Assembly: GCA_020633325.1 (NCBI GenBank)
Contig: JACKDX010000001.1
Coordinates: 1,587,301 to 1,651,300 of the forward strand
DNA from: Myxococcales bacterium
GTDB lineage: Bacteria; Myxococcota_A; Polyangia; Polyangiales; GCA-016699535
Length of the DNA: 64,000 nucleotides
Reading direction: 5' to 3'
Positions 27,705 to 48,693 of the stretch are shown here, in pieces. Position 1 is the first letter of the stretch, and every line of letters starts with the position of its first letter. The position numbers and the translations under genes were made by a program. A model generated the notes under the pieces. The model saw only the letters and a program-made list of their open reading frames with translations, made no database searches and was not told where the DNA came from.

Positions 27705-28580
27705 ATGGGAGCTATTGAAATCCTGAATCAGCGCATGATTGAAGACATGCAGAAATCCTGCCGGATTGCCGCGGATGCGTTGGTGATGGTGGGTTCAAAA
27801 ATCCGTGCCGACATGAGCACCGAGGAAATCAACACCTTGGTCCATGAGTTTATCGTCGGCCTGGGCGCCCGCCCATCGCCGCTCAATTATCGCGGGTTCC
27901 CCAAGAGCGTTTGCACGAGCATCAATGAAGTGGTGTGTCACGGCATCCCGGGCTCTCAGGTGTTGCAGGACGGTGATATCATTAACGTCGATGTCACCTC
28001 TTATTTCCCTTTGAAAGGCGGGTATCATGGTGATACCAGCGCCATGTATTACGTCGGGACGCCCAGCGAGCAAGCTATCAAGGTGGTGGAGGTCGCGCGT
28101 CGCTGTCTTGAGCTTGGCATCGAGCAGGTCCGGCCGAATGGCCGCATCGGTGACATCGGTGCCGCCATTCAAGAATATGCAGAAGGCCAAGGGTGTTCGG
28201 TCGTACGCGATTTCGTTGGCCATGGGGTGGGTCGTGAGTTTCATATGGCGCCCCAGGTGCCACACTACGGCACGCGCGGAAGCGGCAAAAGGCTCAAGCC
28301 AGGAATGGTCTTCACCATTGAGCCGATGATCAACCTCGGTGATTACGCATGCGAAATTATGGACGACCAATGGACCGTGTTGACGAAAGACCGCTCGCTT
28401 TCTGCGCAGTTCGAGCATACCGTGCTGGTCACTGACACGGGATGCCGCGTGTTGACTGAACGTGATCAGGTCGTGGCGCACAGCGAGGATCTGCCTTGGT
28501 CTCAAGTGGGCCCACGCTCGGCACCGGCGGCGTTCAACAGGGGCCGAGAGCCACACGCGCTCAAGCAGGCAGCCCAGTAG
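27705..28580 (+). CDS. map: type I methionine aminopeptidase
   Basis: Metal-ligand motifs VCHGIP, DIINVDVT, GYHGDTS, FVGHGVG, FTIEP and FEHTVLVT. Confidence 0.95.
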   Translation: MGAIEILNQRMIEDMQKSCRIAADALVMVGSKIRADMSTEEINTLVHEFIVGLGARPSPLNYRGFPKSVCTSINEVVCHGIPGSQVLQDGDIINVDVTSYFPLKGGYHGDTSAMYYVGTPSEQAIKVVEVARRCLELGIEQVRPNGRIGDIGAAIQEYAEGQGCSVVRDFVGHGVGREFHMAPQVPHYGTRGSGKRLKPGMVFTIEPMINLGDYACEIMDDQWTVLTKDRSLSAQFEHTVLVTDTGCRVLTERDQVVAHSEDLPWSQVGPRSAPAAFNRGREPHALKQAAQ

Positions 28581-28589
28581 CCCGGGCCC

Positions 28590-28955
28590 TTAATCCTCAG
28601 GGTCAGCGACGAATAATTCGTCGCCCTCGATGCTGAAAGCAAGCGGACGAAGAAAGGCGCCCCTACATGGTCCGCCTTCGCAATAGCCATCCTCTGGGCG
28701 ATAGATGGCGCCGTGGGTCGAGCACAGTAGGTGGGTACCTTCCCTGTTCCAGAACAGTCCCGAACCCGCATCAAGGGGAATGGGCAGATGTTGACACTCG
28801 TTCAGATAAGCTCGCAGTGTTCCGTTCTGGTCGCGGAGTACGATGGCGGAGCGCGGCTGGCCGTACCGACCGGGACTCAGCCTCACCGCCATGGCCTCCT
28901 TAAGCCCTAGGGTGGCCGGCTGGCAGGCGTAACCGGGTGAAATTGGCGCATTCAC
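28590..28955 (-). CDS. small Rieske [2Fe-2S] domain protein
   Basis: Rieske ligand boxes CQHLP (CxH) and CSTHGAIY (CxxH). 121 aa. ATGA overlap with the phosphoesterase gene. Last gene of the sulfur operon. Confidence 0.85.
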   Translation of the reverse strand: MNAPISPGYACQPATLGLKEAMAVRLSPGRYGQPRSAIVLRDQNGTLRAYLNECQHLPIPLDAGSGLFWNREGTHLLCSTHGAIYRPEDGYCEGGPCRGAFLRPLAFSIEGDELFVADPED

Positions 28956-29647
28956 GGGAATAATGGCTCCTTTTTCCCGCGATCGAGGTAGACATTTTTT
29001 GCCGAAACCGATATAATACGCCGCTCCGGCAGCGCCAGCGCCGTCAACTCGCCCCCGTAGACACAGCCGGTGTCTAGTCCGTAGGCCCAGGGATGCCGTT
29101 GAAGGCCCCGACGCGCGTCATGGCCAAACACCACGCATTCGGGCCCTTCCCATGTGCTGGCCCAAGGCACCCCCATTGTGGCAAGGGGGCTCGGCGTTCC
29201 ATCGGGCAAGATACTGCGCAGGGTAGTCAGCTGCGCGGGGTCCTGGGCTTCCAAAGGTATACCGGGCACGATCCCCGCATGCACCACCGCCACCCCATAC
29301 GTTTCGAGCCGCAAGTAGAATGGCTTCTGCCGAAGCCAAGCAACATCGTCTCTGCTGAGCGATTGGGCGGCAGTGACATGGCTCTTTGTCGCACGAGGTG
29401 GAGGCTCTCCTTTATCTAAGTGTTGTCGGATTTCGAGCACACGGACATCATGGTTTCCAAGTACGGTGCGGGCGCTTAATGAGCGCGCCATTTCGACTAC
29501 GCCTTGCGAATCAGGCCCCTTGGCGACCAAGTCTCCAACAAACACCACACTATCTCCCGGTTGGTACTCACATCGCTCAAGGAGGATGCGCAGCTCTTCT
29601 GCACATCCGTGGACATCGCCGATAATGAGAGCGCGTGAAGCAGCCAT
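28952..29647 (-). CDS. calcineurin-like metallophosphoesterase (ApaH/PrpE-like)
   Basis: Motifs IIGDVHGC, FVGDLVAKGPD, LGNHD, HAG and GHD. The start codon overlaps the aprB-like stop by 1 nt. Confidence 0.85.
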   Translation of the reverse strand: MAASRALIIGDVHGCAEELRILLERCEYQPGDSVVFVGDLVAKGPDSQGVVEMARSLSARTVLGNHDVRVLEIRQHLDKGEPPPRATKSHVTAAQSLSRDDVAWLRQKPFYLRLETYGVAVVHAGIVPGIPLEAQDPAQLTTLRSILPDGTPSPLATMGVPWASTWEGPECVVFGHDARRGLQRHPWAYGLDTGCVYGGELTALALPERRIISVSAKNVYLDRGKKEPLFP

Positions 29648-29988
29648 TAGAGGTTCGGATTAAAGGGTGGGGTGCCAGTTGCGGGGGTCTCGTATCGTGT
29701 TTCCGTACCATCCCGGCGCCGAATCCTCCAGACCGTCTTCGGTTTAATGGCGCGGCCGCGCAGCGTGACGCCCTGCACAATGACCGCCGTTGGGAGTTGC
29801 ATATGGATCGCTTGCGTGGGGCACACTTTCACGCAGGCTGCGCAGTCCCAGCATTCTGCATTGCTTCGAATCGTGGCCTTGCGGTGCGGCAACAAAATCA
29901 TGAGATCTCCGGGGCAATCCCGGACGCACATAGGCTCCTCAGCCCGTCCACATCCGTTGCATAGCTCGTGATCGACAAATATCCCCAT
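29647..29988 (-). CDS. aprB: AprB-like adenylylsulfate reductase beta subunit (2x[4Fe-4S] ferredoxin), short form
   Basis: Cluster motifs CNGCGRAEEPMCVRDCP (Cx2Cx7Cx3CP, the spacing I recall for AprB) and CWDCAACVKVCP. 113 aa, so it lacks the long C-terminal tail of classical AprB. Directly downstream of the aprA-like gene. Confidence 0.75.
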   Translation of the reverse strand: MGIFVDHELCNGCGRAEEPMCVRDCPGDLMILLPHRKATIRSNAECWDCAACVKVCPTQAIHMQLPTAVIVQGVTLRGRAIKPKTVWRIRRRDGTETRYETPATGTPPFNPNL

Positions 29989-29997
29989 AACAACATT

Positions 29998-31743
29998 CTA
30001 CGCGTGCCGAATGACCGCGCCGTCGTCCAGCGCCGGCAACACGACCTCCAACGCTTCACGTTCCACTGGCCGCTCGCGCATCTCGATACGACCATCCGCA
30101 TGTTGGATGCTGTTGACGAACACCATCCACCGCGCATCATCGCGCATGGGATAATCAAGTCTTTCTTGATAGCAATGCCAACGCGTCTCCTTGCGGTGCA
30201 GCATATGTTCCACCAACACCATGGCGACGGTCACGCGATCGATGACTTCGTGTGCGTGCATGAGCCCATAGCTGCTCTCGGCACAAAGCGAGCGCAAATC
30301 ATCCGACAGCCGTCTGAGATGCAGACGCGCTAGCGTGAGCTCACCTTCCGAGTATCCGTAATCGACGGCAATGCCCCCGGCGTACTCATCCATGATTTTC
30401 TGTAAGCGCTCTTCGAGGTCTTTGGGGTCCACTCCTTCTTTTTGGGCCAGCGGGGCGAATACCCGCTGCTGCTCTTTGACGAGCTCGGTGGTTGAGATTG
30501 GCACAAGCGTGCCTCTTCGCGCCTCGTTGATCATGTCGCGCACAGCCAAGACCGCCTCCGCCCATGCGCCGGGCGCGTACTTTTTCGGGCAGCCTCCCGT
30601 AACGTCGCCCGCCGCCCATAGACCTTCACGGGTCGTGCGCCGCCGGGTATCGACCCAATAACCGCTAAGGCCATGGCCGCCAACGACCAAAGGTTCGCCG
30701 CCCGTGACCTCGATGGGTGCCATATGACCGTTGACTTTTGCGTAATACGCCTCATCCGACATGATCATAGCAGCCGCAGGGGCCATCGAGAGGTATGCGG
30801 CAATGGTCCATTCGAGCCGCTTCGGATCGACGCCCCGCAAATCCAGATAGCAAGGGCCGCGACCTGCGCGCCTCTCGAGGAGCGTCGCATACAAGCGGTC
30901 TTGGGTTGTCATGCGGATGCCGCCCAGCTCGCCATAGTATTTGTCGAGGTACGCCTCGCCCTTGGCGTTGATCTGAGGGGCGCGAAGCCACTGGGCGATT
31001 TCGCCTGTCGGTGCAATAGCATCCTTGATGCGCATGGGAATAAAGCGGAACTCAAAGGAGGTCATCTCGGCACCGGTGCGAATCCCCATCGCCAGCCCTG
31101 CGCCAGTATTGTAAGGCGAATACCACATCCGATGTGCGGCCGAGCCAGGGTTGTTCGGGCGATAAAGGCCCGCGGCCCCTCCCGTACATACCAAGACGGT
31201 CTTGGCGCGCACGACATAGAACGCACCATCACGCACGCCAAACCCATAAGCGCCCACGATGCGCCCCTCATGCGTCGCAAGACCGGTGACGTTCACGCGG
31301 TTGAAGATGCGCGCTCCAGACGCCTCAGCGCGCTTAGCCATTATGGGCTTGATACGTTCGCCAAAAATTTTTATGGATGCGCGACCGCGTTTCAACGGTC
31401 GACCCATTTCATCGCGCACGAGCGGAAGGCCCCAGCTTTCGACACGGTGGACCTGCTCATTGAGTTGCCGCGCCATGCTTAGCACTAGATCATCGCGCAC
31501 GACGCCGTGCGTATCGTGTTGGGTATAACGCAAAAATGATTCTGGCGTTTCGCCATGCGTCAGATACGCATTGAGTGCACTGATGCCGGCTGCCAGGCAT
31601 CCGCTACGGTAGATGTGAGCTTTCTCTAAGACGATCACATCGAGGTCCGGCGCTTGCTCAGACGCGTCCACTGCGGCCATGCATCCGGCAGCACCGCCGC
31701 CAATGATGAGCACATCGCACGAGAGCTCTACGGTGTCGCTCAT
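29998..31743 (-). CDS. aprA: AprA-like adenylylsulfate reductase alpha subunit (FAD flavoprotein)
   Basis: ORF trimmed to MSDTVELSCDVLIIGGGAAGC (ATGA overlap with mec). It matches my recollection of Archaeoglobus AprA along its length: LEKA..RSG..A.G.SA.N.Y, TGGA, RFIP.R.KD, LQKIMDEYAGGI and RKETRW...Y....DYP. Confidence 0.82.
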   Translation of the reverse strand: MSDTVELSCDVLIIGGGAAGCMAAVDASEQAPDLDVIVLEKAHIYRSGCLAAGISALNAYLTHGETPESFLRYTQHDTHGVVRDDLVLSMARQLNEQVHRVESWGLPLVRDEMGRPLKRGRASIKIFGERIKPIMAKRAEASGARIFNRVNVTGLATHEGRIVGAYGFGVRDGAFYVVRAKTVLVCTGGAAGLYRPNNPGSAAHRMWYSPYNTGAGLAMGIRTGAEMTSFEFRFIPMRIKDAIAPTGEIAQWLRAPQINAKGEAYLDKYYGELGGIRMTTQDRLYATLLERRAGRGPCYLDLRGVDPKRLEWTIAAYLSMAPAAAMIMSDEAYYAKVNGHMAPIEVTGGEPLVVGGHGLSGYWVDTRRRTTREGLWAAGDVTGGCPKKYAPGAWAEAVLAVRDMINEARRGTLVPISTTELVKEQQRVFAPLAQKEGVDPKDLEERLQKIMDEYAGGIAVDYGYSEGELTLARLHLRRLSDDLRSLCAESSYGLMHAHEVIDRVTVAMVLVEHMLHRKETRWHCYQERLDYPMRDDARWMVFVNSIQHADGRIEMRERPVEREALEVVLPALDDGAVIRHA

Positions 31744-32237
31744 AGGACCTGCATAACGGATTCCGTAAACCCATTGCTTCCTGCCACATGCACCCACAGT
31801 TTGCGATCCACGATGTTGCCGCCAAGCACGCTCATCACCAAAAACGCACACGGCCACATCAACTGGCCGTGAGCGGCAAACGTGGCTGCGTCTTCCTCGG
31901 AAAAATACGCGCCCGCATCGCAGTGCGAGTGATAAATGACCTTGATCGGGCGTCCTGTTGCGTTGCCCTCTTCGAAGCGCCGGGCTGCCCTAAGGGCATT
32001 AATCTTGAAATAGGTTTTTGAAGTGCGAGGAAATCGCTCTGGATCAAGGGCGTGGTATTTGTCCGCTTCGTTGACCTCAAAAATCGCCTCATCCACCAAG
32101 AGCGGTTGCTCCAAAGGCCCGCTCAAAAACCCGCAGCACTCGCTCGGATAGGCCCGAACGGCCTCTTCCTCGATTGCCGTCATGACCGAGCGCGGCAGAG
32201 TCAGGTTGCCATGAATCCACGGTGTCTCACCACTCAT
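31740..32237 (-). CDS. mec: JAMM/MPN+ metalloprotease (Mec-like)
   Basis: ORF trimmed to MSGETPW... Full JAMM motif: E in PSECCGF, then HSHCDAGAYFSEED (HxHx7Sx2D). The start overlaps the cysM end by 11 nt. Confidence 0.85.
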   Translation of the reverse strand: MSGETPWIHGNLTLPRSVMTAIEEEAVRAYPSECCGFLSGPLEQPLLVDEAIFEVNEADKYHALDPERFPRTSKTYFKINALRAARRFEEGNATGRPIKVIYHSHCDAGAYFSEEDAATFAAHGQLMWPCAFLVMSVLGGNIVDRKLWVHVAGSNGFTESVMQVL

Positions 32238-33162
32238 AATGTTTCTCCCAGCGCATGGGCGCGAAGTATCGGTCCCCCCGATCAGGCGCAATGGTGACAA
32301 TGCAGCCACGTCCGATACGCTCGGCGAGTTGTAGTGCGCCGCAAACGTTCGCGCCGGTCGAATGTCCAACATGCAATCCCTCCTCAGCCGCCAGTCGATC
32401 GGCCATGTCCCACCCGGCGTCGGTCCCGATACGCAAGAGCTCATCCGGCATTCTCGCGTCGTAAATATCGGGAATCATGGATGTTTCCATGTGTTTCAGC
32501 CCTTCAAGTCCGTGCAACGCTTCATCCGGCTCAAGGGCGACACATCGAATGCTCGAGCGGTATTCTTTCAGCCTGCGGCTTATTCCCATGAACGTCCCTG
32601 TGGTGCCAAGACCCGTGACGAAATGCGTCAAGCGATTCCCAACCTGCTCGATGATCTCTTGTCCGGTGCCGAGGTAGTGCGCCTTCGGATTCGAGGGGTT
32701 GCTATATTGATCGGGATAGAAATACGTCTCGGGTGAGGCGTCCACCAGCGCCCGACAGTGGTGAATGGCGCCGTCAGATCCCTCCATGGGGTCGCTGAAA
32801 ATCAGTTCTGTGCCAAATGCTTTGGCAATGTCCTTGCGCGCCTCAGAAACATTGGACGGCATCACGAGTTTGACGCGGTAACCCAAAGCCGCCCCAAAGA
32901 GTGCGTACGCCACGCCGGTGTTTCCGCTGGTGGCATCAATGAGTGTCTTCTGATGGTCGAGCCGCCCATCGAGCACGGCGTCGCGCATCATTTGTAACGC
33001 AGATCGGTCTTTCACCGAGCCGCCAGGATTTCTATATTCAAGCTTCAGATAGAGTTCCACATCCGGGAAGTTCTTTCCCACGTGCCGCAGCCGCACCAAC
33101 GGCGTCTCTCCCACGGCTTCGGTGATGTTACGCATCTGACGCGTGCGCGCAGGGTCGATCAT
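32227..33162 (-). CDS. cysM: PLP-dependent cysteine synthase, CysM-like
   Basis: PLP lysine motif NPGGSVKDR, plus TSGNTG and GLGTTGT. It sits between cysO-like and mec-like genes, the same gene neighbourhood as in M. tuberculosis. Confidence 0.88.
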   Translation of the reverse strand: MIDPARTRQMRNITEAVGETPLVRLRHVGKNFPDVELYLKLEYRNPGGSVKDRSALQMMRDAVLDGRLDHQKTLIDATSGNTGVAYALFGAALGYRVKLVMPSNVSEARKDIAKAFGTELIFSDPMEGSDGAIHHCRALVDASPETYFYPDQYSNPSNPKAHYLGTGQEIIEQVGNRLTHFVTGLGTTGTFMGISRRLKEYRSSIRCVALEPDEALHGLEGLKHMETSMIPDIYDARMPDELLRIGTDAGWDMADRLAAEEGLHVGHSTGANVCGALQLAERIGRGCIVTIAPDRGDRYFAPMRWEKHYEW

Positions 33163-33168
33163 GACAGG

Positions 33169-33459
33169 TCAACCATTCCCGGCTAAGCCTCCCGCAATGG
33201 CCGGCACGATGCTTAATGTATCGCCATCCTTAAGCGGTGTATCGAGATTATCAAGGAATCGGATGTCCTCTTCGTTCGCATAGATGTTAACAAATCGGCG
33301 TACGCCCTTCTCATCGCACAATCGATCCTTGACTCCGGGGTGGTGCTTTTCCAGATACTCAATCGCTTCTTTGACGTTGGCCCCGTCGGCCTGAACGATG
33401 TCCTGTCCGCCGGTGAGCGTCCGAAGTGGTGTAGGAATTCTTACGGTAATTGTCGCCAT
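33169..33459 (-). CDS. cysO: CysO-like MoaD/ThiS-family sulfur carrier with C-terminal GG followed by a 5-residue extension
   Basis: Resembles M. tuberculosis CysO as I recall it (IPT.LR..TGGQ...RFVNIY.N.ED.RF....DGD...I.PA.AGG). It ends ...PAIAGGLAGNG. AAGGA RBS upstream. Confidence 0.82.
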   Translation of the reverse strand: MATITVRIPTPLRTLTGGQDIVQADGANVKEAIEYLEKHHPGVKDRLCDEKGVRRFVNIYANEEDIRFLDNLDTPLKDGDTLSIVPAIAGGLAGNG

Positions 33460-33471
33460 GGTTTGTCCTTT

Positions 33472-34404
33472 CTAGTTTTCTTGAAAATACGTGTCCAAAC
33501 TAAAATATCGCTCTCCTGTGTCGCAGAGCACGGTGACTACCACGTGGTTTTCACCAAGCTCTTCAGCGAGCCTTGAGGCGATGGTCACATTGGCCCCGGC
33601 GCTGATGCCAACAAGAAGGCCTGCTTTTTCTGCAAGGGCTTTTTTTGCGCGATGCGCTTCGTAATCGGAGACACGTCGAATCTCATCCACCACGGTGGGA
33701 TCGAAGTTTCCCGGCACGAACCCCGCGCCAATCCCCTGGATTTTTGTTGGGCCTGGCTCGCCGCCCGATAATACGGGGCTGGTTTCGGGTTCCACAGCAA
33801 CTATCCTGCACGACGGGTAGTTTCGCTTAAGGACGCGGCCGACGCCCGTGATGGTACCTCCGGTCCCAACGGCGGACACAAAGGCATCCACCGGCTGTCC
33901 CTCGAGCGCACGCATGATTTCCTCCGCCGTGGTCTCGGCATGGGCAGCGGGGTTGGCGGGATTATCAAACTGCATGGGCATGAAAGCCCCGCGGCTCGCG
34001 ACGATATCCTTGGCCGCCTCGATGGCACCTTCCATCACCCGCTCGGCCTGGGTGAGGACTATCTCGGCGCCATACGCCTGCAATAACGCACGCCGCTCAA
34101 GCGACATACTCTCCGGCATCGTGAGCACCAAATGGTAACCCTTTACTGCGCAGACCAATGCGAGGCCGATGCCGGTGTTGCCGCTTGTTGGCTCGACAAT
34201 GGTATCCCCAGGACGGATTTTTCCCTCGCGTTCCGCCACTTCGATCATGGACAGACAAATGCGGTCCTTGACCGAGCCGCCAGGGTTCACGTGTTCCGCT
34301 TTTGCCCAAAGCGTTGCGGCGCCTTGAGGAGTGCAATGGGTCAGTTCCAAGAGCGGCGTATTGCCGATTAGCTCTAATACGGACTGTACTACGGGTGCGG
34401 CCAT
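33472..34404 (-). CDS. cysK: cysteine synthase A (O-acetylserine sulfhydrylase)
   Basis: Motifs IGNTPLL, NPGGSVKDR, PTSGNTGIGLA and GTGGTITG. The start lies 3 nt after the Rrf2 stop. Confidence 0.9.
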   Translation of the reverse strand: MAAPVVQSVLELIGNTPLLELTHCTPQGAATLWAKAEHVNPGGSVKDRICLSMIEVAEREGKIRPGDTIVEPTSGNTGIGLALVCAVKGYHLVLTMPESMSLERRALLQAYGAEIVLTQAERVMEGAIEAAKDIVASRGAFMPMQFDNPANPAAHAETTAEEIMRALEGQPVDAFVSAVGTGGTITGVGRVLKRNYPSCRIVAVEPETSPVLSGGEPGPTKIQGIGAGFVPGNFDPTVVDEIRRVSDYEAHRAKKALAEKAGLLVGISAGANVTIASRLAEELGENHVVVTVLCDTGERYFSLDTYFQEN

Positions 34405-34407
34405 GGG

Positions 34408-34860
34408 TTATATGACGTAGTTCAGGCGTCGCTCAGAGGCGCGACGAATCCCTAGCTGTTCGGCGTTTTGGGCCAGTTGTTCCATAGTGACGGCGTTAAA
34501 GCAGTTCTCGATTCGCTCTGAGAGTTCACGGAACGCGTGAATGATCACTTGACTCGAGCTTCCCGAGGATCTGGCTTTCGGCGACTCGGCCACGAGAGCG
34601 AGGGGCCCTTCAACTGCTCTCACCACATCCCCAACGCTGATGGCAGAGGCGGGACGCGCCAATCGATAGCCGCCACGCGGGCCGCGTTTCGAGGTCACCA
34701 AACCCGCACGCTTCAGGTCTTGGCATATCTGTTCCAAAAACCGCGACGGAATGGCCTGGCGCGCTGCAATGTCTTTGATCTGAGAGGCCTCTCCCTGGGT
34801 ATGAAAGGCCATGTCAAAGACGGCTTGTACGCCGTATCGGCCTTTGTTGGACAGTTTCAT
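34408..34860 (-). CDS. Rrf2-family transcriptional regulator without Fe-S cysteine ligands (CymR-like)
   Basis: ORF trimmed to MKLSNKGRYGVQAVFDMAFH, the typical Rrf2 N-terminus. Winged HTH IPSRFLEQICQDLKRAGLVTSKRGPRGGYRL. There are no cysteines in the region where IscR and NsrR bind their cluster. Confidence 0.82.
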   Translation of the reverse strand: MKLSNKGRYGVQAVFDMAFHTQGEASQIKDIAARQAIPSRFLEQICQDLKRAGLVTSKRGPRGGYRLARPASAISVGDVVRAVEGPLALVAESPKARSSGSSSQVIIHAFRELSERIENCFNAVTMEQLAQNAEQLGIRRASERRLNYVI

Positions 34861-34869
34861 CGCCGCTCC

Positions 34870-34898
34870 AAGATAGCGCGGCGCACCCTGCTGGTCAA
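34870..34898 (-). promoter_or_regulatory. candidate sigma-70-type promoter of the sulfur operon
   Basis: The minus strand reads TTGACC (34898..34893), 17 nt, TATCTT (34875..34870), inside the AT-richer 84-nt spacer after metH. It would give a very short or absent leader for the Rrf2 gene. Confidence 0.3.
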
Positions 34899-34944
34899 CC
34901 AAACCCTATCGGGTATGTCAAGAATAAATAAACGTCGGATAATA

Positions 34945-37900
34945 CTATGTTTTGCGTTCTGGTTCGTATCCGAGGCTGGGTCTTAGCCATCGTTCGGTCT
35001 CTTCGAGAGAAGTCCCCTTCCTGTGGGCGTATGCCTGCACCTGATCGCGATCGATGAGCCCCACCGCGAAATAATGGGCCTTGGGATGGGCAAGATAGAT
35101 GCCGCTGACGCTGGCTGCCGGCCACATCGCGAAGTTCTCGCTAAGCGTGATTCCAATCTCAGGGGCGTTCAACAACGAAAAAAGTTTGGGTTTCTCGCTG
35201 TGGTCGGGGCATGCGGGATAACCAAATGCCGGACGGATCCCGCGGTACTTCTCCGCGATCAGCTCTTGGGGACTGAATTGCTCTTCTAGCCCGTATCCAC
35301 AGTCACGACGTGCGCGCTGGTGCAGATACTCCGCGAACGCTTCGGCCAGTCGATCGGCGAGGGCTTTGGCAATGATGGCATTGTAATCGTCGAGGGCGTC
35401 ACGATATTCCGCAGCAAGTTCTTCGGCGCCTATGCCGGCCGTGACTGCAAACGCCCCAACATAATCCGCGATACCTGTCTCTTGGGGAGCGACAAAATCC
35501 GCCAAACAAAAATAGGGCTCATCCTCGGGCTTGGCTTGCTGTTGCCGCAGCATGCAAAACCTGAGCAATTCTTCTTGGCTATCAGTATGACTCACTACAA
35601 TATCGTCGCCATCAGCGTTCGCGGGCCAAAAGCCGTAAACCCCGCGCAGCGTGAAGCGGCGCTCGCGGATGATGCGATCAAGTAACTGACGTCCATGGTC
35701 GTAGAGTTCTCGTGCGGCTGCACCATAGGTGGGATGCTCTAAGATCTTGGGAAACTTCCCCTTGAGCTCCCAAGCAGTGAAGAAAAAAGTCCAGTCAATG
35801 TAGGGGACTAAATCTTCCAATGTGACATCGTCGACCACGCGACGGCCGAGGAAACTCGGTACGGCTATATCCTTCTCGGCCCAAGTGATGGCCGCTGGAT
35901 TTTCTCGTGCGATGGAGTAGGGCAGCTGGGGTTTGCGTCGTTTCTGCTCATAGAGCCGAACGAGCCTGGCTTGCTCCTTGCGGTTGTTTTCTTCAAACGC
36001 GGCCTGCCGCTCGGGCGAAAGAATATCCGCAAGGACGCCCACGACTAAAGAGGCATCGAGCACGTGCACGGTGTTGGCGTCGTACCTGGGAGCAATCTTT
36101 ACGGCCGTGTGCTGCCGGCTGGTCGTGGCCCCCCCAATCAGTAGAGGCAACTCGAATTTCTGACGTGCCATTTCATCAGCAACGTTGACCATTTCATCGA
36201 GCGAGGGGGTGATCAACCCGCTCAGGCCGATGGCGTCCGCCGCCACGTCTTTTGCAGTTTGGAGAATTTTTTCAGCCGGCACCATCACGCCAAGGTCCAC
36301 GACATCATAGTTGTTGCATCCCAAGACGACGCCGACAATGTTCTTTCCAATGTCGTGAACATCACCCTTGACGGTGGCCAAGACGATTTTCGGACGGGCT
36401 TTGGCGACGCCGCCGACTTTCTCTTTCTCCATGAAAGGCTCTAAGTAAGCCACCGCGCGTTTCATCACGCGCGCGCTCTTCACCACCTGGGGCAGAAACA
36501 TCTTTCCCGACCCAAAAAGCTCACCCACGACTTTCATACCGTCCATCAATGGGCCCTCGATGACATGTAGGGGCTTAGGATGCTTCTGCCGCGCCTCCTC
36601 CGTGTCGGCTTCTATGAAATCCACGATACCATGCACCAAAGCGTGCGAGAGTCGCGCTTCGACAGAACCTTCTCGCCAAGCGAGATCGAGGGTCTTCTTC
36701 TTGCCGATGGATCTAGCGCTTTCCGCAAAGGTAACCAGCCGTTCGGTTGCATCGGGGCGCCGATTAAATATGACATCCTCCACCTTGCTGAGCAGGTCTT
36801 CGGGAATGTCCGCGTACACCGCAAGTTGACCCGCATTGACGATGCCCATGGTCATGCCTGCTGCAATGGCGTGATACAAGAAGGACGCATGCATGGCCTC
36901 GCGTACCGTGTCATTGCCGCGGAAGGAAAACGAAAGGTTGCTGACGCCGCCACTGATTTTGGCGTGCGGGCACGCTGCTTTGATACGTCCAATTGCCTGA
37001 ATATAGTTTTTCGCGAAGTCGTTGTGCTCAGCAATGCCGGTGCCAATGGCTAGAATGTTGGGGTCAAAGAAAATGTCTTGCGCATTGAAGCCAACTTTCT
37101 CCGTAAGCAGGGAATAGGCTCGCTTGCAAATGGATACCTTCCTATCCACCGTCTCGGCTTGCCCCTCTTCATCGAACGCCATCACCACGACAGCGGCACC
37201 GTATCTCTTAACGAGCTTGGCCTTTTCGAGAAAATCGGCCTCACCCTCCTTGAGTGATAACGAGTTGACGACGCCTTTCCCCTGCACGCATTTGAGCCCC
37301 GCTTCAATGACCGACCACTTCGAGCTATCGACCATAATGGGAAGCCGCGAAATCTCCGGCTCCGACGCGATGAGATGCAAAAAAAGCGTCATCTCCTTCT
37401 CTGAGTCGAGCATGCCCTCGTCCATGTTGACATCAAGAATATTGGCACCACTACGGACCTGGTCGAGTGCGACGGCCAAAGCGTCGGAATGTTTGCGCTC
37501 TTTGATCAGTCGTGCAAAACGTTTGGACCCGGTCACATTGGTTCGCTCGCCAATCAGGACAAAGTTGGAGTCCTCTCGAATCACAAACGGTTCGAGACCG
37601 CTGAGACGCGTGAGGTGTGAGACAGGCATCTCGGCAACGTCGCGAGGCTTTATCCCCCGACATGCATTTTTTATAGCGGCGATGTGTTCGGGTGTTGTCC
37701 CACAACATCCCCCGACCAGATTGACCAGGCCATCTTCAGCCAATGCTTTTAACTGCATGGCTGTCGTGGCTGGCGTCTCCTCATACTCACCAAAGGCATT
37801 GGGCATCCCCGCGTTCGGGTAACAGCTGATATAGCAAGTGGCCAATCTGCTGAGTTCAGCAATGTAAGGCCGCATGTCCTTTGCGCCGAGCGCACAGTTG

Positions 37901-38625
37901 ACCCCGACACTCCATGGGTTGGCATGGGCAATGGAGGCCCAGAAAGCTTCAATGGTTTGCCCCGAGAGTGTGCGCCCGCTTTTATCCGTAATGGTTACCG
38001 ACACCATGATCGGTAAGTAGACCTTCTCGCGCTCACAGACCTCCTGGATGGCAAAGAGCGCAGCCTTGGCATTGAGGGTGTCAAAGATTGTCTCGACCAT
38101 GAGCAAGTCGACACCACCGTGAATGAGTCCCCGAACCTGTTCTTCGTAGGCCAAACGCACCTCATCAAACGTCACGGACCGGTATGCAGGGTCGTTTACA
38201 TCAGGCGACAAGCTGAGGGTCTTGTTGGTAGGACCGATGGCGCCCGCCACAAAACGAGGCTGCGCCGGATCCTGCTCGGTGACGATGAGCGCACAGCGCT
38301 TGGCCAGCTTGGCCGCCTCGACGTTCAGGTCGTATGCGAGATCCTGTAAGCCATAATCGGCCTGAGCGATGCGGGTGGCCGTGAAGGTGTTGGTTTCAAT
38401 GATGTCGGCGCCCGCGGTGAGAAATTGTGTATGAATGCCGGCGATAATATCGGGCTGGGTCATGACCAGCACATCGCTATTCCCTTTGAGCGCATGGGTG
38501 TGCGTACTGAATCGTTTTCCGCGAAACGCTGACTCGTCCAAGGCATGCCGCTGAATCATGGTGCCCATGGCGCCGTCGAGTATCATCAGCCGCTCTTTGA
38601 GCGTTGCTTCTAGATCTTGCTGCAT
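34945..38625 (-). CDS. metH: cobalamin-dependent methionine synthase
   Basis: 1226 aa with all modules: Hcy-binding N-terminus ([11 protein letters not shown]), pterin-binding module, B12-binding GDVHDIGKN (DxHxxG) and a C-terminal AdoMet reactivation domain. Confidence 0.95.
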
Positions 38626-38635
38626 TGGGCGGTGT

Positions 38636-39622
38636 TTACGCCGCGCTCGGCGTTGACGCCAGCCCCACCGGGATGGGTTTGACCGCGGGTGCCACGGCGC
38701 TCAATGGAATTCCCTCTAAAATCGCCACGCATAGGTCTTCAAACGTGTAGCCCAGTCCGCGAACGATTTTTGGCAGAAGACTGGCGCTTGAGGTGAGCCC
38801 CGGCAGGGTATTGACCTCAAGTACATAATCATTGCCGCCTTCGGTGACCATCATATCCACACGGGTGGCGCCGATAGCCCCCACGCTCCGATTGGCTTTC
38901 TCGGCGACATCGAGAAGCGTCTGATAGCGGCTCGGGCTGACGCGGGCGGGGAAATGGTAGGTACTCTGGCCCGCTTGATACTTCGCCTGATAATCATAAA
39001 ATTCCCCCAAAGGCTCGATCTCTATTGCGCCCAAGGGCTTTCCATGCAGCAACCCAACTTGAATCTCCTGTCCCTGAATATAGCGCTCGACAAGCACATC
39101 GCCCGGAAATTGGCTTGCAAGCTTTACCCCAGCATGAAGTTCCGTGAGCGATGCGGCTTTGGAGCTTCCTACGCTTGAGCCTTGGCTCCGGGGTTTGATA
39201 AACACAGGAAAGCCAAAGGATCCGTGCGCTTGCTCGGCTTCTTCGAGTGTGTCCGGTTCGAGGACATAATAAGGCGGCGTAGGCACGTTGTAGAGGCGGA
39301 ATAATTCTTTCGCCTTCACCTTATCCATCGCCAAAGCACTCGCCAGCACGCCAGAGCCCGTGTACGGGATGCCCAACAGTTCCAAGAGGCCCTGAATGCA
39401 GCCATCTTCGCCGTAGGTGCCATGGAGCGCTATGAATGCGACGTCGATCGGATCTTGGCGCAACACCTTATCGATGTCGCGATCGACGAATACGGTGACA
39501 GCATCGTAGCCACGTGAAACCAGTGCTCGATGCACGCATTCGCCAGTTTTTAATGAGATCTCCCGCTCGGCACTGAGTCCGCCCATCAATACACCAACGC
39601 GTTTTTCTCGATACTTCGTCAC
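38636..39622 (-). CDS. ddl: D-alanine--D-alanine ligase
   Basis: ATP-grasp fold. Motifs [22 protein letters not shown] and EVNTLPGLT. Confidence 0.93.
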
Positions 39623-46211: not shown

Positions 46212-46278
46212 CTCGCCCCACGGCCCTCTTGGGCCAGTGCCGAAGGGACCCATCCCATCCGAACGACGGAGACTGCGT

Positions 46279-47397
46279 ATGCTGTATTTTGATTATCACG
46301 CCGCGAGCCCCCCGTGCACCGCCGCGCGCGAGGCAATGTCCCTGGCCGAGGCGGTCGCTTGGGCGAATCCTTCAAGCATCCATCAAGCAGGTCGCCAGGC
46401 GCGACAATGGTTAGAGCAAGCGCGGGGGCAGGTGGCGGATGCCATCGGAGCACAATTGAGCGAAGTGATTTTTACCTCGGGAGGAACGGAGGCATGCAAT
46501 CTGGGGCTCCGGGGACTTCTCTGCACGCGACCTGCGCGCGTCGTCACGACGCCTGTCGAGCATCCGGCGGTGACAAATGTAATCCGCGAGTGGGAGCGCC
46601 AGGGCACCGAGGTGGTATCTCTCCCGGTGGATGGCTCAAGGGTTCCGAGTGCAGCACAGCTTGAAGAAGTATTGCAAACGCCGACCGAACTTGTGGCCGT
46701 TCAATGGGTTAACCACGAAACCGGCATGGTGTTCCCCATCGCCGGCTATGCGGAAGTATGCTTCAAAAGCGGCGTGCCCCTCTTTGTCGATGGCACACAG
46801 GCGCTTGGCAAAATTCCTATCAATGTCAAGGGGCTCGGAGTGACCGCCATGGCATTTGCGTCTCACAAGATGGGGGGGCCCGCGGGCGTTGGCGCGCTTT
46901 GGGTCACGCCAGAGCGAGATGTTGAACCGGTCCTGCGAGGCGGCGCGCAAGAAAAAGGTCGTCGCCCCGGGAGTCCGGATGTGGTTTCCTTGGCGGGGTT
47001 TGGTGCAGCGGCGGCGCGCGTGGCTGACCGGCTTGGGCAGCTCAAAGCGATCGGTAAGCTGCGCGACTCGCTCGAAGCGTTTCTAAGGACACTCGGGGCT
47101 AGCGTGAACGCAGATGGCGCGCTTAGAGTGGCGACTGTGACCAACGTCAGCTTTCCCGGGGTGCGCGCCGATACGCTTGTGCCCGCGCTCGATGTAGAAG
47201 GCCTATGTGTCTCAAGCGGCTCGGCGTGCTCCTCAGGGCTCGTGCGCGTCAGTCCAGTGCTCGAAGCCATGTATCCTGAAGAATCCTGGCGCGCGAGCAG
47301 TGCGGTCCGCTTCAGTCTAGGACCCGAGATCACCCCAGAGGACATCGAGACTGCTAAAGGCATTATGCGGCAAGTCCTGTCGAGATTTTCATCTTAA
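46279..47397 (+). CDS. cysteine desulfurase (NifS/IscS class V aminotransferase)
   Basis: ORF trimmed to MLYFDYHAASPP. PLP lysine SHKMGGP and catalytic loop SSGSACSSG. It precedes mnmA. Confidence 0.88.
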   Translation: MLYFDYHAASPPCTAAREAMSLAEAVAWANPSSIHQAGRQARQWLEQARGQVADAIGAQLSEVIFTSGGTEACNLGLRGLLCTRPARVVTTPVEHPAVTNVIREWERQGTEVVSLPVDGSRVPSAAQLEEVLQTPTELVAVQWVNHETGMVFPIAGYAEVCFKSGVPLFVDGTQALGKIPINVKGLGVTAMAFASHKMGGPAGVGALWVTPERDVEPVLRGGAQEKGRRPGSPDVVSLAGFGAAAARVADRLGQLKAIGKLRDSLEAFLRTLGASVNADGALRVATVTNVSFPGVRADTLVPALDVEGLCVSSGSACSSGLVRVSPVLEAMYPEESWRASSAVRFSLGPEITPEDIETAKGIMRQVLSRFSS

Positions 47398-47511: not shown

Positions 47512-48693
47512 ATGGAATCACTCACCCACAATCCTAGATACGTCTGTTCAGATCCCATGCCCCAACACGTCCCGCTCACACAAGGTCGTTTCGATCGTCA
47601 AGCTGATTCATTCGCCTCAAGCGCCTCCCCAAAACGTTCGGCCGTCCGAATCGTGGTGGCCATGAGTGGAGGTGTCGATTCCTCCGCGGCAGCAGCGCTT
47701 CTCCAGGAGCAGGGTTACGATCTGGTCGGGGTCACGTTGCACCTGTGGGATGCTGAGCCAGGCCGACAGCCCGGTCGGTGCTGTGCGCCGGAGGATCAGG
47801 AGGACGCCCGACGGGCATGCGAGGCTTTGGGGATTCCGCACTACGTGCTCAATGAAACCGCCGCATTTCGAGCCGAGGTCGTCGATCCCTTTCTTGAGAG
47901 TTACACACGTGGCAGTACGCCCGTGCCATGTGTATCGTGCAATCAGCACGTGAAGCTCGGCAGGCTCATCGAGGTCGCGGACGCGTTTGGTGCCACGTAT
48001 GTAGCCACGGGACATTACGCCCGTCTTCAGACGAACGAGACTGGAGGCCTTGAGGTTTTGCGTGGCATCGATCGAGATAAGGATCAAAGCTATTTCCTGT
48101 TTGGTGTCCCCGCCTCCACACTAGAGCGGTTCATGTTTCCCCTTGGGGAGATGACCAAGCCCGTCGCACGCATGCATGCTGAACGCCTTGGCGTGCCCAA
48201 CTGGAGTAAGCCCGACTCGCAGTCCCTATGTTTTGTGCCGGACAACGACATCGCGGGATTTGTGTCCCGCCAGTCGGGTCCGCAGCCTCATGGACACATT
48301 ATGGATGAATCCGGGGCAGTTTTGTCGCGACACAGCGGAATTCATCAATTTACCATAGGACAGCGCCGCCGTCTAGGCATCACGGGGAAAGAGCCCAGAT
48401 ATGTGCTGAAAATCGTCCCCGAGGACCATGTCGTCGTAGTCGGGTCGCGTGCGGCACTAGCTCGCCGCACATTCAGTGCCAGCCGTGCATCCTGGCTGAT
48501 CGAGAAGCCTCGCAACCCATTTCGCGCGCTTGTCCGCATCCGTTATCGGCATGAGCCGAGCCCCGCCGAGGTCACGCCCACGCAGGGGGGCTTCTCGGTA
48601 GAGTTTGAATGTGAGCAAACCGCTATCACCCGCGGACAGGCTGCTGTGATCTATAAGAACGAGACCCTCGTTGCAGGTGGCTACATTGATTAG
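47512..48693 (+). CDS. mnmA: tRNA 2-thiouridine(34) synthase MnmA (start uncertain; N-terminal extension)
   Basis: PP-loop VAMSGGVDSS, motifs CCAPEDQEDA and RGIDRDKDQSYFL. Alternative start at ATG 47557. Confidence 0.88.
   Translation: MESLTHNPRYVCSDPMPQHVPLTQGRFDRQADSFASSASPKRSAVRIVVAMSGGVDSSAAAALLQEQGYDLVGVTLHLWDAEPGRQPGRCCAPEDQEDARRACEALGIPHYVLNETAAFRAEVVDPFLESYTRGSTPVPCVSCNQHVKLGRLIEVADAFGATYVATGHYARLQTNETGGLEVLRGIDRDKDQSYFLFGVPASTLERFMFPLGEMTKPVARMHAERLGVPNWSKPDSQSLCFVPDNDIAGFVSRQSGPQPHGHIMDESGAVLSRHSGIHQFTIGQRRRLGITGKEPRYVLKIVPEDHVVVVGSRAALARRTFSASRASWLIEKPRNPFRALVRIRYRHEPSPAEVTPTQGGFSVEFECEQTAITRGQAAVIYKNETLVAGGYID

Follow-up and report, generated by a model that had tools for sequence, protein, structure and literature searches.

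A probable sulfur-assimilation and cysteine operon with an AprBA-like reductase, next to a probably separate phosphoesterase-Rieske module, in a Myxococcales bacterium

Dissimilatory AprBA, for which structures are available from Archaeoglobus fulgidus (1JNR/2FJA) and M. gigas (3GYX), is a reversible enzyme. An assimilatory PAPS-reductase class was described in 2023 with MtPAPSR from Methanothermococcus thermolithotrophicus (8A8O; Jespersen & Wagner 2023, PMC10322725), which has been demonstrated experimentally to be PAPS-specific and assimilatory, and for which a reverse reaction was not measurable. MtPAPSR is strongly inhibited by PAP, and the methanogen cluster possesses its own unusual PAP phosphatase (PMC10322725). 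This precedent was absent from an earlier note on the locus discussed here. With respect to cysteine synthesis, the closest described system is CysO/CysM/Mec+ of Mycobacterium tuberculosis (Rv1334-Rv1336; 3DWG), in which a CysO protein with a C-terminal GG is encoded next to a PLP cysteine synthase and a JAMM protease. The ApaH protein of Myxococcus xanthus has been characterised as a symmetrical Ap4A hydrolase (Sasaki et al. 2014, as cited in PMC10148737).

The window, that is, the whole stretch of 64,000 nt of DNA from an uncultured Myxococcales bacterium that was analysed, contains nine verified minus-strand ORFs between positions 28590 and 34902 (Table 1). In profile scans their domains are, in gene order, Rrf2, PALP (reaching the cysK cut-off), ThiS/MoaD, a second PALP (CysM-like), Prok-JAB/JAMM, a flavoprotein similar to AprA, a di-cluster ferredoxin similar to AprB, a metallophosphoesterase of the ApaH-like type and Rieske. 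The genes and domains listed in the earlier note were recovered by the ORF check and the Pfam and equivalog scans; searches for AprA, AprB, CysO, CysM and JAMM returned the families as assigned, with the equivalog cut-offs for aprA, aprB and cysM being missed. When the junctions were recomputed from Rrf2 to Rieske, the first three proved to be gaps (3, 12 and 6 nt), followed by overlaps of 11 nt and 4 nt (ATGA), a gap of 9 nt, and overlaps of 1 nt (TAATG) and 4 nt. All lengths agree with those given previously, but the last overlap, between the phosphoesterase and Rieske genes, reads GTGA instead of ATGA. The Rieske gene starts with GTG at 28955, and homologues of 121-127 aa favour this long form. 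For Rrf2, the gene call of the source contig and the homologues indicate ATG 34860 (150 aa) as the most likely start, and not TTG 34902.

Table 1. Coordinates of the genes and of the upstream motif in the window
Feature	Position	Strand	Evidence and remarks
Promoter/operator-like motif (putative) ATTCTTGACATACCCGATAG	34906..34925	-	conserved in related loci
Rrf2-family regulator, 150 aa, CymR/IscR-like	34408..34860	-	PF02082, 127.8 bits
CysK, O-acetylserine sulfhydrylase A	33472..34404	-	TIGR01139 cysK, 401 bits (cut-off 350.95)
CysO-type sulfur-carrier protein, ThiS/MoaD fold	33169..33459	-	PF02597
CysM-like PLP cysteine synthase, presumed CysO partner	32227..33162	-	PALP, 207 bits
JAMM/Mec-type metalloprotease, 165 aa	31740..32237	-	PF14464, 58 bits
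AprA-like alpha (FAD) subunit, assimilatory (P)APS reductase of MtPAPSR type	29998..31743	-	8A8O_A match, NF005331
AprB-like short beta subunit, 113 aa, 8 Cys for two [4Fe-4S], conserved Trp47	29647..29988	-	best solved relative 8A8O_C (E 8e-17)
ApaH-like metallophosphoesterase, PPP family	28952..29647	-	PF00149; best solved relative 2QJC
Small Rieske [2Fe-2S] protein, C54-x-H56 ... C78-x-x-H81, GTG start	28590..28955	-	PF00355, 38.6 bits

The nine genes had been taken for one functional unit. This view is contradicted by their distribution, since genes 1-7 are found clustered in many genomes while the last two stem from another conserved neighbourhood. The analysis shows sequence similarity, conservation of residues, a recurring gene order and the independence of the two modules. 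The run is probably a composite, with genes 1-7 forming a sulfur/cysteine operon that includes an AprBA-like pair of the MtPAPSR lineage, and genes 8-9 forming a separate module.

The AprA-like protein scores 609 bits against 8A8O_A of M. thermolithotrophicus and 288 bits against 1JNR_A, the AprA of A. fulgidus. It reaches 728 with NF005331 (cut-off 557) but only 338 with TIGR02061, the dissimilatory aprA profile (cut-off 641), and the AprB-like protein similarly fails TIGR02060 aprB (70.8, cut-off 135.65). In the phylogenetic tree, the dissimilatory clade leaves out the AprA-like protein of the window in 200/200 bootstraps. The whole Apr family stands apart from fumarate-reductase-like outgroups, again in 200/200, placing the flavoprotein inside this family and away from fumarate reductase and aspartate oxidase, and the "PAPSR-like" sequences constitute an unresolved grade (clade support 19/200). 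The former description of the pair as "dissimilatory-type" is not supported; the pair matches the methanogen assimilatory PAPS reductase.

The window pair and MtPAPSR both consist of an alpha flavoprotein and a short beta ferredoxin (113 aa in the window, 104 aa in MtPAPSR), with alpha subunits that are about 51-53% identical, and both are found in an assimilatory gene context and lack a membrane partner. The catalytic residues N58, W207, R238, R283 and H357 are conserved, as are the sulfate-binding residues of APS reductases. Furthermore, the pocket residues S123, T246 and Q251 are common to MtPAPSR and distinguish both proteins from the AprA of A. fulgidus, which has Q145, V273 and L278 at these positions. 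The specificity loop, however, is R-A-S in the window and K-R-S in MtPAPSR, and one of the three residues proposed for PAPS specificity is thus altered. Because A122 of the window replaces R121 of MtPAPSR, the substrate may be either APS or PAPS. Other differences are the bacterial (Polyangiales) host, a cluster devoid of ATP sulfurylase, APS kinase and DHH-type PAP phosphatase, and the incorporation of the pair in a cysteine operon that comprises CysK, CysO, CysM and JAMM and is headed by an Rrf2 regulator. With dissimilatory AprBA, the pair shares the superfamily, the cofactors, the catalytic residues and presumably the FAD-N5-sulfite mechanism, but the identity is only about 35-40%, the nucleotide-pocket residues differ, the AprB of the window has no long tail, and there are no Qmo, AprM or Dsr genes near the pair. 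The AprBA-like proteins are predicted to form a soluble reductase with FAD and two [4Fe-4S] clusters, sharing the lineage of MtPAPSR, that would convert activated sulfate (APS or PAPS) to sulfite for biosynthesis and not for respiration.

The proposed CysO/CysM/JAMM assignment was borne out by the match of the carrier protein to M. tuberculosis CysO (3DWG_C, E 4e-20), by its retained C-terminal GG and by the JAMM motif HSHCDAGAYFSEED (HxHx7SxxD), which is intact in the window and in 27/27 related loci. A sequence search yielded no solved relative of the JAMM protease. Whereas the closest solved relatives of the carrier protein, 3DWG_C and 4N6E_B, both terminate at GG, its own C-terminus consists of VPAIAGG followed by the five-residue tail LAGNG; in relatives, the tail past the GG varies from 0 to 10 residues. 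HcyS of Wolinella and QbsE of Pseudomonas reportedly also have a tail after the GG and require trimming by a JAMM protease. The JAMM protease of the window presumably trims the CysO tail and/or frees cysteine from a CysO-Cys adduct. The CysM-like protein stays under the TIGR01138 cysM cut-off (327, cut-off 394), and its assignment follows from the conserved placement of its gene, which lies between CysO and JAMM. Its dependence on CysO is presumed from gene context, as the sequence scores higher against E. coli CysM (227 bits with 2BHT) than against the CysO-dependent enzyme of M. tuberculosis (180 bits with 3DWG_A). As compared to the mycobacterial pathway, the operon adds CysK, the AprBA-like reductase and the Rrf2 regulator. 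As with MoeZ in M. tuberculosis, no E1 activator is linked to the operon of the window, while in most relatives a ThiF gene lies inside the cluster. Two routes from sulfide to cysteine would be encoded side by side: one from O-acetylserine and sulfide via CysK, the other from CysO-thiocarboxylate via the CysM-like synthase followed by hydrolysis by the JAMM protease, which probably also removes the LAGNG tail and exposes the GG terminus.

The gene order is not restricted to this genome. The core Rrf2-CysK-(ThiF)-CysO-CysM-JAB-AprA-AprB occurs in more than 20 Polyangiales genomes (loci L001-L027, L118 and L125). Of the 22 distinct loci that span the interval from CysK to CysO, 18 have a ThiF-family gene there. 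Sat directly follows AprB in L002/L021, L020, L030 and L031; L028 reads Rrf2-AprA-AprB-CysD-CysN/CysC, L122 reads Sat-CysC-AprA-AprB, and in L124 a PALP enzyme adjoins AprA. AprBA-like homologues in other phyla are located next to Sat, CysC or CysDN, without CysO. None of the annotated flanks of related loci contains Qmo, AprM or Dsr genes. The earlier idea of an assimilatory APS-to-sulfite-type step joined to the CysO pathway gains from these comparisons: the connection of an assimilatory sulfate-to-sulfite step with CysO-type cysteine synthesis is a well-supported prediction, because the core order recurs and distant homologues adjoin Sat, Sat-CysC or CysD-CysNC. Judged by gene order, genes 1-7 (Rrf2 to AprB) would be a sulfur-assimilation/cysteine operon typical of Polyangiales (Myxococcota). 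A literature search found no paper describing this gene combination itself. Neither tblastn with seeds from related loci nor Pfam scans of most other large ORFs detected an E1 activator, ATP sulfurylase, CysD/CysN/CysC or sulfite reductase in the window, which agrees, as far as these searches reach, with the absences noted before. If the pathway is complete in the host, the genes for activating sulfate, for reducing sulfite and for the E1 activator would lie elsewhere in its genome.

It could also be imagined that all nine genes serve one pathway, with the Rieske protein as electron donor to AprB and the phosphoesterase clearing a nucleotide by-product (for example PAP to AMP), as a non-canonical PAP phosphatase does in the methanogen pathway. 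On thermodynamic grounds, a low-potential Rieske ferredoxin could reduce APS, the operon has no other visible electron-donor gene, and PAP is a strong inhibitor of MtPAPSR. Moreover, the phosphoesterase gene shares 1 nt with the stop codon of AprB, and this overlap is kept in three genomes (the window, L024 and L125) of the four-genome lineage to which the window belongs; it would fit a recruitment of the phosphoesterase into the operon. Nevertheless, such an integrated pathway appears unlikely. The phosphoesterase-Rieske pair follows AprB in only 4 of about 30 cys/apr loci, all within this lineage, and in two of these four (L024 and L125) an opposite-strand gene parts the phosphoesterase from the Rieske gene and so cuts the latter off from the operon. 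Among 80 metagenome loci with phosphoesterase homologues, including 46 with at least 1.5 kb of upstream sequence, none contains an Apr or Cys gene. Of the 64 loci in which the downstream sequence is long enough, 9 have a Rieske gene directly after the phosphoesterase, and Map comes next in all six of these that extend further; the order phosphoesterase-Rieske-Map without Apr genes is likewise present in L035, L116 and L117. On a 401-kb contig of one relative, the cys/apr genes (187.6-205.4 kb) and phosphoesterase-Rieske-Map-ParAB-FolD (223.6-240 kb) are about 30 kb apart. Furthermore, PAP may not be made at all, because the Arg of MtPAPSR is missing from the Myxococcota loop and, in relatives, Sat but no APS kinase is encoded beside AprB.

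Homologues of the phosphoesterase with about 55% identity are distributed across Myxococcota. Some are fused to a Rieske domain, pointing to the phosphoesterase and not AprB as the Rieske partner, and the Rieske motifs are kept in homologues of the small protein as well as in the C-terminal half of the fusions. Because the pair follows AprB only in the four-genome lineage, the Rieske protein is not supported as redox partner of AprBA, and the participation of the phosphoesterase in the sulfur pathway, also proposed earlier, is likewise unsupported. Gene order and fusions show the pair to be independent of the cys/apr cluster, and the Rieske partner would be the phosphoesterase. With ApaH and ApaH-like proteins (T. 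brucei 2QJC, 169 bits; E. coli/Shigella ApaH 2DFJ), the phosphoesterase shares the PPP motifs GDVHG, GDLVAKG and GNHD, and it has about 56% identity with a protein of M. xanthus whose annotation is symmetrical Ap4A hydrolase, again at odds with a role in one nine-gene pathway. It differs in remaining below the ApaH equivalog cut-offs and in its pairing with a small Rieske protein, a pairing or fusion for which no description was found in the literature search. In the composite reading, the two genes would be an ancestral module that belongs to the Map-MatE-ParAB-FolD region and would most likely encode a dinucleoside-polyphosphate hydrolase or phosphatase together with a redox-active partner domain. 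The cys/apr cluster would have been relocated directly upstream of this module in the lineage of the window, and genes 8-9 may now be co-transcribed with the operon.

There is very little to recommend an oxidative direction, in which the AprBA-like pair would convert sulfite and AMP to APS for sulfite detoxification or disposal, as in sulfur oxidisers and Pelagibacter. Dissimilatory AprBA does allow both directions, and Sat adjoins the pair in some relatives, where the reverse reaction could give sulfate and ATP. However, the enzyme does not belong to the dissimilatory and oxidative clade, its closest characterised relative, MtPAPSR, has no measurable reverse reaction (PMC10322725), and no AprM or Qmo partner was found in the annotated flanks. 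The contexts are biosynthetic as well, with cysteine-biosynthesis genes and Rrf2, or with APS kinase or CysDN neighbours in other phyla. The analysis yielded no finding in support of this earlier suggestion, nor of the one that the pair acts on another adenylated substrate such as a CysO acyl-adenylate, which is most improbable: tight linkage to ThiF, CysO, CysM and JAMM in Polyangiales and one loop residue unlike both characterised enzyme types weigh less than the conservation of every catalytic and sulfate-binding residue of APS reductases, the 51-53% identity to a proven PAPS reductase, and the homologues in other phyla that adjoin Sat, CysC or CysDN without CysO.

Finally, the Rrf2 protein, a candidate regulator of the operon, has no Cys ligands for an Fe-S cluster and remains below the CymR and IscR cut-offs in the equivalog profile scan. 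The motif ATTCTTGACATACCCGATAG, which includes a TTGACA -35-like box, is positioned 46-65 nt upstream of its start, and about 20 related loci have this motif (ATTCTTGACATTTCCGATRG) ahead of their Rrf2 genes. A promoter/operator function can be inferred for it, and genes 1-7 would probably be transcribed from this conserved element. It occurs once in the window, where no occurrence is expected by chance, and is located only before the Rrf2 gene.

The nine consecutive ORFs of the run carry the domains that the earlier note had assigned to them, as judged from Pfam and NCBIfam profiles. The first of the two PALP enzymes scores above the cysK equivalog cut-off (401 versus 351 bits), and the second has CysM as its best match at 327 bits, under the cut-off of 394. 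The AprA-like protein is a 581-aa FAD flavoprotein, the AprB-like protein a 113-aa di-cluster ferredoxin, and the calcineurin-like phosphoesterase finds its best, sub-threshold match in ApaH. When recomputed, the junctions have the sizes given before: +3, +12, +6, -11, -4 (ATGA), +9, -1 (TAATG) and -4 nt. The last overlap reads GTGA instead of the ATGA reported, since GTG at 28955 is the start codon of the Rieske gene, and the Rrf2 gene, rightly recognized, most likely starts at ATG 34860 and not at TTG 34902. A promoter and terminator scan yields weak consensus matches only, and a terminator-like hairpin inside the JAMM gene is taken as a chance occurrence. Immediately upstream, on the same strand, lie genes for Ddl (D-Ala-D-Ala ligase) and MetH (cobalamin-dependent methionine synthase); only 84 nt lie between the end of the latter and the Rrf2 start, which makes read-through into the cysteine operon possible.

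Coordinates of the features discussed, in the window unless another locus or contig is named
Feature	Position	Strand	Remark
Nine-gene run	28590-34902	-	Rrf2 regulator to Rieske protein
CysO-like carrier gene	33169-33459	-	
Terminator-like hairpin	31849-31871		Inside JAMM gene
Rrf2-upstream motif (ATTCTTGACATNNCCGAT motif)	34906-34925	-	Conserved 5' of Rrf2 gene
Ddl and MetH genes	34945-39622	-	
Cysteine desulfurase and MnmA genes	46237-47397 and 47512-48693	+	
Phosphoesterase-Rieske pair or fusion	Window 28590-29647; loci L035, L116, L117; proteins P0140, P0153, P0187, P0191, P0194, P0238		
Ends of Rieske and convergent Map genes	28580-28590		
cys/apr cluster	401-kb contig, 187.6-205.4 kb		
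Phosphoesterase-Rieske-Map block	401-kb contig, 223.6-240 kb		
Gene between phosphoesterase and Rieske genes	L024:12780-14140		AAA_14/DUF4143 ATPase
Gene between phosphoesterase and Rieske genes	L125:10823-12451		542-aa protein, no Pfam matches
LarE-family gene and 124-aa ORF of cys/apr clusters	L013:6566-7405 and equivalents in about 12 loci; L118:6217-6591		

The best solved match of the flavoprotein is chain 8A8O_A, the alpha subunit of the assimilatory PAPS reductase of Methanothermococcus thermolithotrophicus (MtPAPSR), with 609 bits over residues 4-562, nearly its full length, versus 288 bits for AprA of A. fulgidus and 217 bits for that of M. gigas. The best solved match of the AprB-like protein is the MtPAPSR chain 8A8O_C (E 8e-17), and the beta subunit is short in both, 113 aa here versus 104 aa in MtPAPSR. 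The description of the pair as dissimilatory-type AprBA does not hold. The flavoprotein passes NF005331 (728 versus a cut-off of 557) and falls short of the aprA equivalog TIGR02061 (338.5 versus 641.75), as does its partner for the aprB equivalog TIGR02060 (70.8 versus 135.65). Furthermore, we placed the window protein in a neighbour-joining tree, which is distance-based only, together with MtPAPSR, AprA of A. fulgidus and full-length representatives from among 1.84 billion proteins searched. There the dissimilatory clade (A. fulgidus and three representatives) is recovered in 200 of 200 bootstraps with the window sequence outside it. The Myxococcota AprA-like sequences form a clade of their own with the same support. 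The flavoprotein nevertheless belongs to the Apr family as had been proposed, since the family as a whole is split from fumarate-reductase-like outgroups, again in 200 of 200 bootstraps. A monophyletic group of PAPSR-like enzymes is without support in this distance tree: the non-dissimilatory sequences form a grade (19/200).

The catalytic residues are kept, with N58, W207, R238, R283 and H357 of the window corresponding to N74, W234, R265, R317 and H398 of A. fulgidus, and direct reading of the AprB-like sequence gives the eight cysteines for two [4Fe-4S] clusters together with Trp47. These residues and the eight-cysteine beta subunit are common to dissimilatory AprBA and MtPAPSR and therefore do not discriminate between them. 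The nucleotide pocket does, resembling that of MtPAPSR and not that of A. fulgidus AprA: E141, W144, Q145, V273 and L278 of the latter are matched by a gap, A122, S123, T246 and Q251. Some of these A. fulgidus pocket residues are named in PMC10322725, and the others come from the literature on the A. fulgidus structure.

A scan of one genome per species yields 29 loci, nearly all from Polyangiales, Sandaracinaceae or 'Myxococcales' MAGs, and the closest relatives of the window are uncultured Polyangiales (Myxococcota) MAGs. When the window proteins are mapped onto these loci, the order Rrf2-CysK-...-CysO-CysM-JAB-AprA-AprB, the recurrence of which in related genomes was to be checked, is present in every locus long enough to hold it. 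Homology, conserved residues and gene order are direct observations. ATP sulfurylase (Sat), without a kinase domain, lies directly 3' of AprB in L002/L021, L020, L030 and L031. More distant homologues in other bacteria have biosynthetic neighbours as well: Rrf2-AprA-AprB-CysD-CysN/CysC in an Anammoxibacter MAG (L028), Sat-CysC-AprA-AprB in L122, and a PALP enzyme adjoining AprA in L124. In the case of P0241 an AprA-AprB pair stands alone and says nothing about context. No Qmo, AprM or Dsr genes are found in the scanned ORFs of the window or in the annotated flanks of its relatives (±10 kb). Given these biosynthetic neighbours and flanks, the context of the AprBA-like genes is one of assimilation and not of respiration. 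A dissimilatory AprBA is rejected on the strength of equivalog scores, tree position, the residues of the pocket, the small size of the beta subunit and surroundings free of Qmo, AprM and Dsr genes.

Within the window, searches with seeds from the related loci give no match for ThiF or Sat, in agreement with the earlier note, nor for CysD, CysN/CysC or a LarE-like gene. Its claim that sulfite reductase is absent stands for most of the other large ORFs, where Pfam scans detect neither this enzyme nor any Qmo or Dsr gene. ATP sulfurylase, APS kinase and PAP phosphatase are all missing from the window, which differs in this respect from the genomic association of MtPAPSR. Apart from MetH adjoining the operon, the window shows just one more pair of genes for sulfur handling, encoding an IscS/NifS-like cysteine desulfurase beside the tRNA 2-thiouridylase MnmA; nothing points to this pair serving CysO. 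Most Polyangiales clusters have in their vicinity a gene for a PP-loop sulfur transferase of the LarE family (TIGR00268, 328 bits) and a 124-aa ORF without Pfam match between CysO and CysM, both of which the window lacks.

MtPAPSR is PAPS-specific and assimilatory, its reverse reaction is not measurable, and its specificity is ascribed to K120, R121 and S122 together with the absence of a clashing Gln (Jespersen & Wagner, PMC10322725). The corresponding window loop (residues 118-125) reads R121-A122-S123, the Gln being absent, the Ser retained and the central Arg lost, and the 120 closest homologues read [KRQ]-R-G-R-[AG]-S. Two of the three specificity positions thus appear to be kept or conservatively replaced in the window, with the central Arg gone. 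A G-K-R-S loop as in MtPAPSR occurs where an APS kinase adjoins (L028 and P0242 of L122), while the Myxococcota enzymes with G-R-[AG]-S have only the kinase-less Sat beside AprB (L002, L020). With the motif tracking the adjacent kinase, there is a hint of APS as the substrate in the Myxococcota clade, although the loci are few and cysC could lie elsewhere in those genomes. It is possible, again from few loci, that the loop variant constitutes a natural switch between APS and PAPS specificity, and the correlation of R-A/G-S versus K-R-S with the absence or presence of an APS kinase next door makes such a switch directly testable.

The cysteine branch of the operon is reminiscent of the CysO pathway of M. 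tuberculosis, with which it shares the carrier fold, the Gly-Gly and the adjacent JAMM protease. The 96-aa CysO-like carrier (PF02597, 65.8 bits) matches CysO of A. orientalis (4N6E_B, E 1e-26) and of M. tuberculosis (3DWG_C, E 4e-20), and its Gly-Gly (residues 90-91) aligns with the chain ends of both. Five residues, LAGNG, follow the Gly-Gly in the window; among relatives, the tail after VPAIAGG counts 0 to 10 residues. The JAMM protein (PF14464, 58 bits) has no match in the solved-structure search, and its HxHx7SxxD motif, HSHCDAGAYFSEED, is intact, as it is in all 27 loci. The variable tail and the adjacent intact JAMM protein fit with trimming, and the carrier presumably undergoes proteolytic maturation by this protease. 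All loci have a PALP enzyme gene between those of CysO and JAMM. The window enzyme is nearer to CysM of E. coli (227 bits) than to that of M. tuberculosis (180 bits) and under the cysM equivalog cut-off; because of this, its dependence on CysO is proposed from its position only. As for an E1-like adenylyltransferase (MoeZ/ThiF) to activate CysO, no ThiF-family match is found across the 64 kb of the window, and such a gene may lie elsewhere in the genome. A ThiF-family E1 gene of about 250 aa is present between CysK and CysO in 18 of the 22 distinct loci that span the interval.

The regulator is assignable to the Rrf2 superfamily only. It misses the cut-offs for CymR (90 versus 195) and IscR (104 versus 208), and direct reading finds no Cys in the stretch that matches the three Cys ligands of IscR (residues ~92-104). 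With CysK as its neighbour, it resembles CymR of Bacillus, which is paired with CysK. In about 20 Polyangiales loci (L003-L027, L118), a conserved 20-nt motif with a TTGACA, ATTCTTGACATTTCCGATRG, lies 5' of the Rrf2 gene, and it occurs once in the window where none is expected by chance. Being conserved in this place and single in the window, it probably marks the site at which the operon has its promoter and operator, combining a -35 box with an Rrf2 operator.

The combination of these elements suggests a pathway, of which we infer the substrates, reaction direction, regulation and co-transcription. Sulfate would be activated by enzymes encoded elsewhere in the genome, upon which the soluble AprBA-like enzyme could reduce APS or PAPS to sulfite with a low-potential electron donor, and an unlinked sulfite reductase would convert sulfite to sulfide. 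CysK would then form cysteine from O-acetylserine and the CysM-like enzyme from CysO-thiocarboxylate, with the JAMM protease trimming CysO and freeing cysteine, and Rrf2 might control the operon through the conserved upstream motif. Every component has a known relative; the system is an extension of known ones and not a new class of pathway. In 2023 the AprBA-like PAPS reductase was reported from one methanogen as a 'unique class' (PMC10322725), and a bacterial origin has been proposed for it. In the literature searched, no paper links this class to Myxococcota or to the CysO pathway, nor is the gene combination of the cys/apr operon described. The enzyme lineage of MtPAPSR is here conserved across a myxobacterial order and built into a cysteine operon with the protein-thiocarboxylate route of CysO. 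Matches to aprA and aprB in metagenomes from such lineages are consequently not markers of dissimilatory sulfur cycling. The operon also offers a bacterial system for asking which donor supplies electrons to soluble AprBA-like enzymes.

The last two genes of the run seem to have a different history. The phosphoesterase misses the ApaH equivalogs (PRK00166, 127.9 versus 176; TIGR00668, 99.9 versus 222.85) but has the PPP motifs on direct reading, and is therefore labelled 'ApaH-like'. It has thousands of homologues; at about 55% identity they are spread over Myxococcota, and one of them, from Myxococcus xanthus, carries the annotation of a symmetrical Ap4A hydrolase. The Rieske protein (PF00355, 38.6 versus a cut-off of 20.3) finds nothing below E 0.07 among solved structures, and no described or solved relative of it as a phosphoesterase partner was found. 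In several homologues the two are fused into one polypeptide of 342-351 aa, in which the Rieske domain is C-terminal and aligns with the window protein; the motifs C54-Q-H56 and C78-S-T-H81 for cluster binding are kept in homologues and fusions.

The earlier note had joined all nine genes into one pathway with the Rieske protein as candidate redox partner, a view that is not supported. None of 80 metagenome loci with phosphoesterase homologues, including 46 with at least 1.5 kb upstream, has Apr or Cys genes nearby. Of the 64 loci that reach far enough 3' of the phosphoesterase, 9 have a Rieske gene directly after it, and in all six phosphoesterase-Rieske loci that extend further a convergent Map gene comes next. 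In Myxococcota the two form a conserved pair, as a rule between a divergent AhpC/TSA peroxiredoxin gene and the convergent Map gene. Three loci (L035, L116, L117) read (divergent AhpC/TSA)-phosphoesterase-Rieske-(convergent Map), then ParA-ParB-FolD-LspA, and the block from Map to LspA is also downstream in the window. On one 401-kb contig, the cys/apr cluster, beside rplS-trmD-rimM-rpsP, and the phosphoesterase-Rieske-Map block are separate loci. The phosphoesterase follows AprB in four genomes only (window, L001, L024, L125), all without ThiF in the cluster. In two of these, L024 and L125, the insertion of a gene on the opposite strand has parted the phosphoesterase gene from the Rieske gene.

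The simplest reading is that the cys/apr cluster moved beside a pre-existing phosphoesterase-Rieske module. Three of the four genomes have the 1-nt overlap of AprB and phosphoesterase, which points to co-expression in the window lineage and does not imply a shared function. One possibility for the module itself is a redox-controlled dinucleoside-polyphosphate hydrolase. The neighbour surveys and the two loci on one contig downgrade the Rieske protein as partner of AprBA and the phosphoesterase as PAP phosphatase. It could still be imagined, as a distinctly improbable outcome, that relocation joined the functions in the window lineage, the phosphoesterase, translationally coupled to AprB through the conserved 1-nt overlap, clearing the nucleotide product or side-product of (P)APS reduction and the Rieske protein feeding electrons to AprB. 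An aerobic soil bacterium would then possess a self-contained module for sulfate reduction that is independent of thioredoxin. Finally, the Rieske and convergent Map genes end 9 nt apart, which leaves no room for separate terminators, so that their transcripts probably overlap.
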